Source of the DNA: Escherichia phage JohannBuxtorf_Bas84
Strand: one strand, 5' to 3'
DNA: 44,189 nucleotides
Sequence record: PQ850611.1
Shown here in pieces: positions 36,648 through 39,056 of the stretch. The notes beneath the pieces are model-generated. The model saw nothing but the letters and a program-made list of their open reading frames with translations. It ran no database searches and had not been told where the DNA came from. How positions within the stretch are numbered: position 1 is the stretch's first letter; every line of letters begins with the position of its first letter. Position numbers and translations under genes: made by a program.

Positions 36648-38912
36648 ATGAGCTTGATTAAATTCGCTGTAACAAAACCCGCTAAAAAAGGCGAAAAAGC
36701 CAGGGCGGAAAACTTCCAGATGACTACCGAAGAGTTTTTCGAATTTATCAATGATGCGAAAGAAATCTCCTCGGTGCATATCAACAAGACGGAAGATAAA
36801 GCCGAGTATGCGCGCCGTAAGCGTAAGGCTGATGGTATTGTGGCTTATACCCGTGACGGCTTACGTCGCAAGACCAGTGCGGTGGACCGCTCGATCCTGT
36901 TCTTCGATATTGACCGTACCGACACCCGCACCCTGCGCCGCTGCCGTAAGGCGTTCATCGACGCGGGGCTGGAACATGTATTCCACACCACAACCGGCGA
37001 CCGCCACCCGCTGAAGGGCGGCACGCGTTGCGCCCGTTTCCTGGTGCTCACTGACAAGCCTGTACCGGCTGAAGACCTGGGCCGCGTCCAGTATGCACTA
37101 TTACACCAACTGGGGCTGTCAGATGTGGACTTCGACGATTGCACGAAAGACACAAACCGCCTGATGTACCTGCCACACCAGCAGTCCGTTATTAAGTGCC
37201 ACTATGGCAAGCGCGCCAATGTGCGTCGTCTACTACGTCGGGCGGACAAGCTGGGGGTGGAAAAAGAGGAAGTACGCCGCGAGCTTACCCATGGCGACGA
37301 CGCAGTGGCAGACGGCATTCTGGACTGGTGCTTCCAGGCAGGATTCGAGGAGTTATCTTCCGGTCGCGGTTATGAAGTGCCGTGCCCGAACGAACATCTG
37401 CACAGCGGCGAAGGGTCGACGGCTGTCATGGTCAAGGATGGCGAGATCCGTTTCAAGTGTATGCACACCGGCAACGAGTGCTGTTCCGAACTGAACAGAC
37501 ACCAGCACCTGGCGCTACGTCTTATCGGGATCCCGGACCACCTGAACGTCGAGCCACACAACATGTCCCGTAAGCAAATCGCCGCCATCCTTCCAGGACT
37601 GGACGACGAGGAAGTCGAATCCTTATATGAACATATCGTTGATGCGGTCGGAGACGGCGACGAGTACGGCGTGTGTACTGATGCAGACCTGGACAACGAG
37701 CCGGTCGCACTGTTCAGTAAGCACGACCCGATCATCGAAGGCCTGGTCAACTTCAAATCGACCTGGTATCTCGCCGGTGAGTCGAACATTGGCAAGTCGT
37801 TCTACGTGCTGGGCCAAATGGGTGCGGTTGCCGCGGGTATTCCGTTCGGTGGCGCGAAGGTCGTCCAGTCTCATTGCTTCTATTTCGACGCGGAAGGTGG
37901 CGAAGCCTCCAACCAGCGTAAGGAGGCATTGCAGATTAAATATGAGCACGACCTGGACAAGCTGCACATTATCGATCTGCAATCTCGCGGCTGGGATATC
38001 ACCAGCAAATCAGGCTTGCGTGAAGTTATCAGCTTCATCAACCGCACCGCTAACGGCGAACCGGTTGGCCTGGTGGCGTTCGACTCACTCAACCAGACTG
38101 TTGCGTTGCGATCCGCCGATGCTAAACCGTTCGACGAGAACAACGCCAGCGATATGGGCGAAGTGGTCAAGGCGCTGAAGGCCATCGCGGAAAATACAGG
38201 CGGCAGTGCGGGCGTCATCCACCACCCGGCGAAAGGTGCAAACGGCAGCAGATCTCCCCGTGGGTCCGGCGCGCTGCATGGTGCTGTCGATTCTGCGTTC
38301 TTCCTGGAGCAACCAGACGACAACCAGCCCGGACAATTGAACCTGTATCATGAGAAGGCACGTAACGGCATCAAGCAAGCGCCGCGCGGCTTCGTCCTGC
38401 TCAAGTGCAAGGTTAAGGTGGATCTCCGCAAGTCCGAAGCGTTCGAAGCCCACCAGTCCACCAGCGCCGGGCCAGACTTCGGTGACGTCGTTGCCGGTTG
38501 GGACGTCAAGCCGATCGCATCCACCCCGCGCGACGAGACTCTCTACCTCGTACCGGTCGCCCTGGCACCGTTCGCTATAGAACAGGCGAAGGCCGCAGGA
38601 AAAGCCGCAGTTAAGGAAGAGAACGCCGCAGGACCGCGCAACGAAAAAGAGAAAGTGCTTTATGCGGCACTGGAAAAACTGATGGAAGATAACCCGGACC
38701 ATACCGGATTCAGTAAATCGGCAATTGTCCGCCAGGCTGGACTTGCGAAAGGTGGCACATCGACGAAGGCAATAGACGATATGGTGGAGCGCGGCGTGCT
38801 CGGTTTTTATACAGATCCGCGCACCGGGGCCATCTATGGGTCGTCGAATATCGTCATCAAAACGAATATACCCATCACGCTTTCTGCGACCGATGACGAC
38901 CTGAAAGATTAA
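36648..38912 (+). CDS. primase-helicase fusion (AEP/PrimPol-like N-terminal domain, RecA/DnaB-like ATPase C-terminal domain)
   Basis: 754 aa; FFDIDRTD (DxD) and HVFHTT motifs; Cys/His cluster CPNEHLH...CMHTGNEC; Walker A GESNIGKS and Walker B-like LVAFDSL. Confidence 0.65.
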   Translation: MSLIKFAVTKPAKKGEKARAENFQMTTEEFFEFINDAKEISSVHINKTEDKAEYARRKRKADGIVAYTRDGLRRKTSAVDRSILFFDIDRTDTRTLRRCRKAFIDAGLEHVFHTTTGDRHPLKGGTRCARFLVLTDKPVPAEDLGRVQYALLHQLGLSDVDFDDCTKDTNRLMYLPHQQSVIKCHYGKRANVRRLLRRADKLGVEKEEVRRELTHGDDAVADGILDWCFQAGFEELSSGRGYEVPCPNEHLHSGEGSTAVMVKDGEIRFKCMHTGNECCSELNRHQHLALRLIGIPDHLNVEPHNMSRKQIAAILPGLDDEEVESLYEHIVDAVGDGDEYGVCTDADLDNEPVALFSKHDPIIEGLVNFKSTWYLAGESNIGKSFYVLGQMGAVAAGIPFGGAKVVQSHCFYFDAEGGEASNQRKEALQIKYEHDLDKLHIIDLQSRGWDITSKSGLREVISFINRTANGEPVGLVAFDSLNQTVALRSADAKPFDENNASDMGEVVKALKAIAENTGGSAGVIHHPAKGANGSRSPRGSGALHGAVDSAFFLEQPDDNQPGQLNLYHEKARNGIKQAPRGFVLLKCKVKVDLRKSEAFEAHQSTSAGPDFGDVVAGWDVKPIASTPRDETLYLVPVALAPFAIEQAKAAGKAAVKEENAAGPRNEKEKVLYAALEKLMEDNPDHTGFSKSAIVRQAGLAKGGTSTKAIDDMVERGVLGFYTDPRTGAIYGSSNIVIKTNIPITLSATDDDLKD

Positions 38913-39056
38913 ATTTTGCGCGCATTGGTCGCCGATATGGGAATTACCATATCGCTAAAAGATTAATTTGTGCGCGCATTGGTTGCCATTTTGAGTGTTT
39001 TTATCTGGTCGTATTGGTTGCCGTGTAGTGTAAATATAATGAATAGTTATGCAGTT

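Follow-up and report, generated by a model that had tools for sequence, protein, structure and literature searches.

A probable replication origin and a predicted transcription layer superimposed in the gap downstream of the helicase-primase gene of Escherichia phage JohannBuxtorf_Bas84

The stretch of DNA analyzed here, 44,189 nucleotides (nt) from Escherichia phage JohannBuxtorf_Bas84 (PQ850611.1; hereafter the window), contains a 538-nt gap between the stop codon of the helicase-primase gene and the next open reading frame (ORF), which has its ATG at 39450. We conclude, with a probability of roughly 0.65, that two systems are superimposed in this gap: a probable replication origin at 39028-39230, in which an AT-rich stretch is followed by seven CGGGACA repeats (iterons; six direct, one inverted) and a conserved GC-rich hairpin, and a transcription layer formed by the dispersed box ATTGGTTGC. 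The results computed here comprise the anatomy of the gap, the confinement of the heptamer, the duplication, a polymorphism, the winged-helix fold of the helicase-primase, the covariation of protein and repeat, and the linkage of arrays to helicase 3' ends. A preliminary description of the region had seen origin-like architecture in direct repeats around a palindrome immediately after the gene, followed by the AT-rich stretch and the array. Its choice of neighbourhood holds, since the comparative evidence favours an origin by the helicase-primase gene and the AT-rich stretch abuts the likely iterons; the repeats and the palindrome that it named do not, as they belong to a polymorphic unit and a dispersed box. 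The CGGGACA array is favoured as the origin element because it is confined to this locus and one duplicate, and because it co-varies with the winged helix of the helicase-primase.

The gene-side module (copy B) and its duplicate (copy A) contain the following features:

39028..39073, unstranded: AT-rich stretch (74% AT), candidate unwinding region, with TATAAT at 39035-39040 and TTATGCA-N7-TGCATAA at 39047-39067
39074..39174, plus strand: proposed iteron array, with CGGGACA at 39074, 39086, 39102 and 39112, inverted GTCCCG at 39127-39132, and CGGGACA at 39160 and 39168
39182..39230, unstranded: extended GC-rich hairpin of 49 nt, CAGTCT..CAGAC..GGGGG-loop-CCCCC..GTCTG..AGACTG, identical to that of copy A
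11426..11620, plus strand: second module ('region A', copy A), between the tail-chaperone and tape-measure genes, with CGGGACA at 11460, 11472, 11488, 11498, 11546 and 11554, a further heptamer upstream at 11384, and the hairpin at 11567-11615

The AT content of the stretch at 39028-39073 peaks at 80% over 40 nt, as compared to 46% for the genome. Both the TATAAT, at exactly the positions reported in the preliminary description, and the array following the AT-rich stretch were found as described there. The array itself is 71% GC, and its first heptamer lies ~160 nt past the helicase-primase stop. Folded as DNA, the 49-nt hairpin has an energy of -13.4 kcal/mol (z = -3.3). CGGGACA occurs 17 times in the genome versus 4.7 times expected, and 13 of these copies, all on the plus strand, fall in the two modules (six at 39074-39174 and seven at 11384-11560). 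The short repeats are thus clustered just downstream of the putative initiator ORF and are essentially confined there, and the orthologous loci show the same arrangement.

The module of ~200 nt is found twice, at 39040-39235 and 11426-11620, with the two copies 27.6 kb apart, 84% identical in the array and 100% identical over 57 nt across the hairpin. Copy A is present in essentially all Dhillonvirus contigs, and both modules are annotated as repeat regions ('region A' and 'region B', with a note that begins 'possible ...') in the record of Sodalis phage SO-1. Among the lineages compared, the module appears to be duplicated in Dhillonviruses only. In 31 module sequences from relatives, 30 of 42 heptamer columns were invariant, as compared to 15 of 59 spacer columns, and the hairpin stems were invariant around a variable 8-nt loop.

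Several further observations concern the modules. The two copies seem to evolve in concert, in that the variants at the junction of the sixth heptamer (CAGCGGGACAGCA-CCCC, CAGGCGGGACAAC-TCCC and CAGGCGGGACAAA-GCCC) are often the same within a genome and differ between genomes. The arms of TTATGCA-N7-TGCATAA are invariant, and its 7-nt spacer reads GTTTTAT or ATAAAAC among relatives, suggesting that the loop or the whole element flips. One IMG/VR contig (L315) ends inside region A, probably owing to an assembly break at the repeat. Downstream of the hairpin, inspection by eye revealed a ACGGCAGCA box at 39257..39265 on the plus strand. Most of the diverged lineages that were read (L178-L181, L302, L304, L306, and L005 at ~17240-17290) carry, downstream of their hairpin, one or two boxes resembling ACGGCA[GA]C, frequently with an A/T-rich hexamer after them, although the iterons and regulator boxes differ.

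The protein that would read the heptamers is encoded immediately upstream:

36648..38912, plus strand: helicase-primase gene, 754 amino acids (aa), TAA stop at 38910-38912, with an N-terminal primase-like region, a zinc motif, a RepA-like AAA_25 helicase and a C-terminal winged helix
38643..38858, plus strand: coding region of the predicted C-terminal winged-helix domain, aa 666-737
38715-38792, plus strand: helices H2 and H3, the proposed iteron-reading surface, aa 690-715

AAA_25, at aa 357-531, is the sole Pfam match of the protein, which belongs to PHROG 3228 ('replicative helicase-primase'); its best sequence match in the PDB is a weak one, to RSF1010 RepA (1g8y, E = 0.44). The C-terminal domain is a winged helix by predicted fold. 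A search with the C-terminal 115 aa alone gave 2 protein-database matches, and orthologues were therefore gathered with the full-length protein. In nine of ten orthologous contigs, a lineage-specific cluster of short repeats lies just after the gene, with seven repeat types overall, in a non-coding gap of ~430-650 nt where the contig reached the next gene. The remaining contig (L305) has a gap of 76 nt after the gene and no array. The lineages, the identity of their helicase-primase to that of the window and their repeats are as follows:

Window: 100%, CGGGACA
L178: 68%, CGGGACA
L302: 69%, GTGTGCCAA, in the same layout of four, one inverted and two repeats, followed by a homologous hairpin
L303: 68%, GTGTGGCAA
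Salmonella phage PhiSTP1 (Cornellvirus, L005): 44%, GGGGAGA, with eight copies in the genome, six of them clustered here together with one inverted copy, and no second module
L179 and L304: 49% and 48%, TTGCGAGT
L181: 47%, TTCCGCACA
L180 and L306: 46%, GGGGATC and GGGAT, respectively

The H2/H3 region reads FSKSAI..QAG...GGT(S/N)T(K/T)AI in both CGGGACA lineages and FS(A/R)R.I...AG...GGS..KP in the GTGTG(C/G)CAA lineages, the L302-type sequence being FSARQIMLNAG..GGSTSKPVYDLLERG. In the more distant lineages it contains DRYKIL, (K/G)RRPA,.Y.K.L or GRYSDAL. Thus, repeat type and winged-helix H2/H3 residues change in parallel, a computational covariation that is consistent with matched specificity. 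The profile of the C-terminal domain also matches the TALE-like repeat protein BurrH (PDB 4cj9) with a summed E of 6e-29 (aa 688-715, 38709-38792). This match runs via a GFSxxxIxKxAGxGG motif that is repeated in BurrH, the single repeat matches being weak, and the likeness may be a coincidence or may reflect a shared helix-loop motif for reading DNA.

CGGGACA arrays were also found beside helicase genes in unrelated phages. When IMG/VR was scanned for CGGGACA in three closely spaced copies, at least 120 raw matches were obtained, and those listed include 77 loci outside Dhillonvirus. The raw number is uninformative, as a permuted heptamer was equally frequent among the matches listed, mostly in period-3 coding repeats, and the genomic context was compared instead. 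The arrays in the 77 listed loci have a median of 7 heptamers at irregular intervals, and in 24 of the 77 the array lies -150 to +300 nt from the 3' end of a gene for an AAA_25 helicase homologue. For the permuted control, GACGGCA, none of 80 listed loci was beside such a gene, and 70 of the 80 had period-3 or regularly spaced repeats. The helicases beside the arrays in unrelated phages share another C-terminal domain, WRxxFY...KKAFxRA (E < 1e-6 in 35 loci), which had no Pfam match in the one member scanned (L061). Because the C-terminal domains are different, the linkage supports an origin next to the helicase gene but not a reader domain in common.

Elsewhere, the gene preceding the array is P4-alpha-like or VapE-like. 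In 13 loci (L083, L085, L090, L091, L092, L094, L099, L109, L113, L117, L119, L128 and L132) a small winged-helix-like protein of ~235-360 aa is encoded, with an N-terminal RGQL..S.RFLA..W.WSKS.V.RFL and a GT/GQ-rich linker that is encoded by the heptamers; no Pfam family was assigned in the two members scanned. In the members read, the heptamers lie inside the gene of this protein, as the lambda iterons lie inside gene O. Homology of the C-terminal domain in the window to these small initiator-like proteins was rejected (hhalign probability 0.3%). A layout that recurs in loci L057-L133 (for instance in the arrays at L075 9313-9423, L114 4632-4777 and L081 1815-2071) has several direct heptamers and then a GC-rich palindrome (e.g. 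CACCCCTTTAGGGGTG) with inverted TGTCCCG copies at its sides; the array adjoins the end of a RepA-like helicase(-primase) gene.

The elements on which the preliminary description had based its origin are present, with slightly different boundaries:

38901..38954, plus strand: polymorphic unit of 54 base pairs (bp), with repeat copy 1 (38901-38933) and the palindrome (38933-38954)
38955..38987, plus strand: repeat copy 2, the ancestral 3' end of the gene with a CGCATTGGTTGCC box, and the sole copy in relatives without the unit

The direct repeats, placed at 38911-38933 and 38963-38987 in that description, are ATTTTGCGCGCATTGGTCGCC at 38913-38933 and ATTTGTGCGCGCATTGGTTGCC at 38966-38987, and are parts of a longer repeat of 33 nt with 88% identity (38901-38933 versus 38955-38987) that spans the last codons and the stop of the gene. 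The palindrome, CGATATGG-GAATTA-CCATATCG, lies at 38933-38954 rather than 38932-38953; it is AT-rich and followed by CTAAAAG. As single-stranded DNA it has an energy of -6.6 kcal/mol (z = -2.9), with one of 200 shuffles as stable. By our own estimate, an 8-bp stem is expected by chance a few times per 44 kb, and is thus unremarkable alone. The direct repeat is no chance match, but an instance of the 54-bp polymorphism and of the genome-wide ATTGGTTGC box.

The 54-bp unit is present in 7 and cleanly missing in 9 of 16 aligned Dhillonvirus loci from IMG/VR. It is also missing in 24 of 60 GenBank records (sampled evenly from 156), where the match is in two pieces over ~86 nt and not 141 nt. Shigella phage EP23 (L011) lacks the remaining TTGCGCGCATTGGTTGCC box as well. 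In the loci that have the unit, the palindrome keeps its right arm, and uncompensated changes are seen in its left arm (GATATGG, AATATGG, GGTATGG). Since it is missing in many relatives, the unit is not essential; it is a tandem copy of the terminal part of the gene with 21 nt of palindromic filler, and as such a dispensable polymorphism and no required element of an origin. An intrinsic terminator at the palindrome or at the hairpins was rejected, as there is no T-run and none was called. The terminator scan of 38800-39500 called a single minus-strand site at 39348-39332, no more than in shuffled sequences.

The second system of the gap is formed by the ATTGGTTGC boxes and a candidate protein that would bind them:

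38924..38932, plus strand: ATTGGTCGC, a variant of the ATTGGTTGC box
38978..38986, plus strand: ATTGGTTGC box
39013..39021, plus strand: ATTGGTTGC box, CGYATTGGTTGCCGTG kept in 16 of 16 aligned relatives
39296..39304, minus strand: inverted ATTGGTTGC box
39386..39425, plus strand: two ATTGGTTGC boxes around promoter-like TTGCAT (39391-39396)-N17-TAGATT (39414-39419), upstream of the ATG at 39450
36308..36637, plus strand: gene of a 109-aa helix-turn-helix (HTH) protein, Pfam Sigma70_r4_2 / HTH_23-like, candidate ATTGGTTGC binder

The box has 16 exact copies in the genome versus 0.55 expected from Markov simulations, and 31 copies versus 12.5 expected when one mismatch is allowed. The copies are intergenic (5792/5806, 21811, 24834/24846, 26499/26516, 29397/29409, 36109, 42528/42551 and six in the gap). 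They are asymmetric, often paired 12-31 nt apart, and overlap -35/-10-like hexamers or the start regions of about ten transcription units. In the related phage GeorgBuechner the box is found at the same loci, and 14 of 16 copies are intergenic although intergenic DNA makes up 7.5% of the genome. The hexamers at 39391-39419 are kept in 16 relatives while their spacer varies, and the layout of boxes and 5' untranslated region at 39386-39425 recurs at 5792-5814 on the minus strand. Other promoter-like hexamers read at boxes are TTGCAT-17-TATATT (26516, minus strand), TTGCTG-17-TATAGT (29409, minus strand) and TTGCAG-16-TAATTT (36109), and reversed boxes lie in TTGACT-N18-CATACT near 42540. These hexamers may act as promoters, judging from their sequence and position.

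In the window, L178, L302 and L303, the HTH protein has kept the segment GKSWAMIAExTGINxSTVRSWVRN almost unchanged. The ATTGGTTGC boxes are likewise constant in these lineages, among which the iterons differ. As the HTH protein and ATTGGTTGC are constant while the winged helix and the iterons change, the two systems are separable. The boxes would thus be operator or activator sites of a phage regulator, most likely the 109-aa HTH protein, and form a predicted transcription layer. They resemble phage operators that overlap promoters in being short and in going with a conserved HTH protein, but differ from them in occurring in both orientations relative to the promoter-like sites. Two side observations concern these boxes. 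A small ORF at ~21690-21740 (minus strand), starting with MKTLIMICVVLLSGC... and a lipoprotein-type signal, is located downstream of the box at 21811; it adjoins the tail-fibre region behind a ATTGGTTGC promoter-like site and may encode a superinfection-exclusion lipoprotein. Cornellvirus PhiSTP1 has a box of its own, TGTTGGCTGC, at 16965, 17025 and 17293, which flanks the GGGGAGA array in inverted and direct orientation and, unlike the genome-wide ATTGGTTGC of Dhillonvirus, was seen only around the module.

We infer the following mechanism for the CGGGACA module, from binding through melting and loading to origin activity. The winged helix of the helicase-primase (aa ~666-737) would bind the heptamers and thereby concentrate the RepA-like helicase at the AT-rich or hairpin DNA; the enzyme would then melt the duplex, load itself and prime synthesis. 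The module at 11426-11620 might serve either as another origin or, like crr in P4, as an enhancer in cis. An origin of the lambda type, with iterons inside the initiator gene, was rejected, as the array lies 160 nt past the stop and the overlapping ORF at 38970-39197 is broken by indels. A more detailed scheme, which we regard as speculative and rather unlikely in full, is a bipartite, P4-like origin system that Dhillonviruses would operate with a RepA-type (SF4-like) primase-helicase. Of the two modules, the gene-side one would then be the origin, and its duplicate, which gene conversion would keep identical, would be required as an enhancer or a further origin; the pairs of winged helix and iteron (CGGGACA, GTGTGCCAA, GTGTGGCAA, GGGGAGA, GGGGATC, TTGCGAGT and TTCCGCACA) would constitute a swappable code, and the H2-loop GFSxxxIxKxAGxGG might read bases.

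The proposed mechanism has counterparts in several known systems. The alpha protein of phage P4 is a single primase-helicase polypeptide with a C-terminal winged-helix origin-binding domain, and octamer iterons are found in ori and crr. The ori and crr system is said to be covered in a 1995 review by Ziegelin and Lanka, and the structure of the origin-binding domain was reportedly solved by Yeo et al. in 2002. The two separated modules described here, which have heptamers and hairpin in common, would parallel P4 ori and crr; Cornellvirus has one module. The oriV of IncQ plasmids (RSF1010) has direct iterons, then GC-rich and AT-rich segments, and hairpin ssi sites at which the plasmid primase acts. 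The iterons of RSF1010, 20 bp in length, are bound by a separate initiator, RepC, and helicase and primase are two distinct proteins. The Dhillonvirus locus resembles IncQ oriV in its RepA-type helicase (a weak match) and its direct iterons, and the GC-rich hairpin is reminiscent of the ssi hairpins; it differs from RSF1010 in having heptamers and one fused helicase-primase, with no RepC-like gene evident.

In the Staphylococcus aureus pathogenicity islands (SaPI), the C-terminal winged helix of Rep/PriRep5 binds 6-12 iterons just downstream of the rep ORF, after which the protein loads itself, and the specificity differs between elements (PMC9371898). The Dhillonvirus locus shares with this system, in which the primase is fused in SaPI5, a primase-helicase with a predicted C-terminal winged helix, six plus one heptamers 160 nt past the stop, and lineage-specific repeats. 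It differs in its motor, which is RepA-like AAA_25 (RecA-fold) without SF3/MCM-like sequence similarity, and in its repeats, which are 7-9 nt long and nearly all direct, with the AT-rich stretch beside the array. The conserved GC-rich hairpin after the array, the second module 27.6 kb away and the setting in a virulent siphophage are further differences from SaPI. Homology of the motor to SaPI Rep (SF3/MCM-like) or to P4 alpha (Toprim and D5_N) was found neither by Pfam nor by PDB sequence match. In the archaeal plasmid pRN1, an essential cis region is located in ~166 bp downstream of the primase-helicase gene ORF904 (PMC4234260). pRN1 is similar in having its origin downstream of a gene for a multifunctional primase-helicase; ORF904 combines a prim-pol with an SF3 helicase, unlike the protein studied here. 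Judged by these comparisons, the feature would work like the SaPI and P4 alpha systems while lying outside their protein families.

A number of results weigh against an origin of this kind. The AT-rich stretch is upstream of the whole array and not a central region with opposed flanking iterons, the array contains a single inverted half-site (39127-39132), and its GC content of 71% departs from the SaPI layout. The flank of copy A, at 53% AT, is not markedly AT-rich, Cornellvirus has no second module, and both modules are located upstream of late genes in the direction of transcription. No array was found downstream of the gene in more distant homologues of 28-34% identity (Jerseyvirus SE2 and the Kagunavirus-like Hrm2 and K-01), which carry a terminator and a reverse HTH gene there instead. 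Homology of the C-terminal domain of the window to the WRxxFY domain of the unrelated phages was rejected (hhalign probability 1.5%, no match with hidden Markov models). The GC skew tracks gene orientation, switching near 21 kb and 36 kb, and located no origin. For the transcription layer, a stricter sigma-70 scan of 38800-39500 called no promoter; such a scan calls none of the sites at the boxes because their -35 hexamers match at 3 of 6 positions only.

The main rival is a role of the CGGGACA modules in transcription, as control regions (late promoter, or anti-termination/attenuation, acting as DNA or structured RNA) that would couple replication to late expression via the winged helix or another factor. 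We consider this unlikely, although it would explain why copy B precedes the small-gene/lysis/terminase block and copy A the tape-measure gene, and why a TATAAT lies 34 nt upstream of the copy B array. The heptamers can also pair alternatively with the single inverted copy, a stable hairpin follows downstream, and a terminator is annotated here in one record. However, only one module is found in Cornellvirus and the other lineages, where it invariably adjoins the 3' end of the helicase-primase gene; nor would a late promoter be expected to lie by helicase 3' ends in unrelated phages, as the arrays do in 24 of 77 loci versus 0 of 80 for the control, among the matches listed. TATAAT is missing from copy A, the hairpins are not followed by a T-run, the stems show no compensatory changes, and no Rfam match was found. 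A version of the origin suggested in the preliminary description, with the direct repeats (38913-38933 and 38966-38987) as iterons and the palindrome forming a cruciform or serving as initiator site, is improbable. The repeats, palindrome and AT-rich stretch are real and adjacent to the helicase-primase gene, and three tandem ATTGGTTGC-type boxes precede the array, as boxes flank the array in other lineages, so that they could conceivably assist the origin, for instance by activating it through transcription. Against this proposal stand the absence of the unit with copy 1 and the palindrome in about half of the relatives, with EP23 lacking the remaining box too, the uncompensated changes in the left arm, the presence of the box at about ten other intergenic sites, and its constancy while winged helix and iterons change.

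It is highly improbable that the repeats and the module are functionless selfish or neutral DNA, such as a miniature inverted-repeat transposable element (MITE) or a recombination scar. The 54-bp unit does behave as a neutral indel, and the sharing of sixth-heptamer junction variants by both copies of a genome is a sign of gene conversion between the modules. Yet heptamers and hairpin stems are invariant while spacers and loop drift, and the position is kept across lineages at 46-100% protein identity, with the repeat sequence swapped and the architecture retained. Packaging sites (pac/cos) bound by the small terminase are the least probable explanation. In P1 pac, clusters of short repeats flank the cleavage region, which the four plus two short repeats around a ~40-nt spacer resemble, and three GenBank records (PTXU06, SP1 and 22664B1) are linearised at ~39316-39347. 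The terminase genes (1-1937) are 4.8 kb away, however, and the repeats co-vary with the C-terminus of the helicase-primase and are tied to that gene in position. Record starts differ among relatives, and the PTXU06 paper reports no terminus mapping; the break near 39343 is therefore treated as probably arbitrary and not as a physical (cos) end. An origin at the gene-side CGGGACA module thus remains the reading that we prefer.

The genomic setting of the gap was examined in the window as a whole. A 901-nt query around the gap matched 157 phage records at 90-95% identity, nearly all of them Escherichia Dhillonvirus (HK578/SO-1-like siphophages). Size, gene order and start point, with the small terminase gene at position 1, match complete Dhillonvirus genomes such as GeorgBuechner/Bas16, and the window represents a near-complete genome of this genus. 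The gene 3' of the gap (39450-39929) is mosaic: in the window and GeorgBuechner it begins with MKFPVTIKDGK... and has 'ALIWNY' internally, most relatives have a first gene beginning with MKALIWNY..., and others an unrelated first gene. The plus-strand ORF at 38970-39197, overlapping the CGGGACA array, is probably spurious, as 1-nt indels among relatives break its frame. The same is probably true of the 'hypothetical protein' ORFs in the GeorgBuechner record (38917-39102, 11264-11383 and 11528-11692); such indels argue against the ORFs annotated across both modules. Neither Rfam (gathering thresholds) nor ARAGORN (tRNA/tmRNA) gave a match in the whole window. The search for copy A in the lineages of 68-69% identity was made with a tape-measure query, which matched close Dhillonviruses only. 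Acidic D/E-rich stretches are encoded by repeated TCGTCTTCGTCGTC-type tracts at 32397-32608 and 35646-35789 in minus-strand genes, namely a gene for a protein similar to single-stranded DNA-binding protein and a 227-aa gene at 35402-36085.

Both Dhillonviruses and their Cornellvirus relatives are common among coliphages and Salmonella phages, and several are in the BASEL collection. The literature and records searched for Dhillonvirus, SO-1 and HK578 gave no account of these repeats or of a replication origin, the 'region A / region B' annotation of SO-1 being the sole hint, and a full-text literature search with the motif strings gave unrelated primer matches only. The result is mechanistically expected rather than surprising, because it extends the logic of SaPI and P4 to virulent siphophages with a RepA-type primase-helicase. 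With the origin assigned to the heptamer array, and the promoter/operator boxes set apart from it, phage engineering would gain targets such as minimal replicons, origin-based incompatibility and safe deletion sites, and mis-annotated 'hypothetical proteins' across the modules would be averted. The series of orthologues, with different repeats in the same architecture, would constitute a natural experiment on how the DNA specificity of a winged helix changes.

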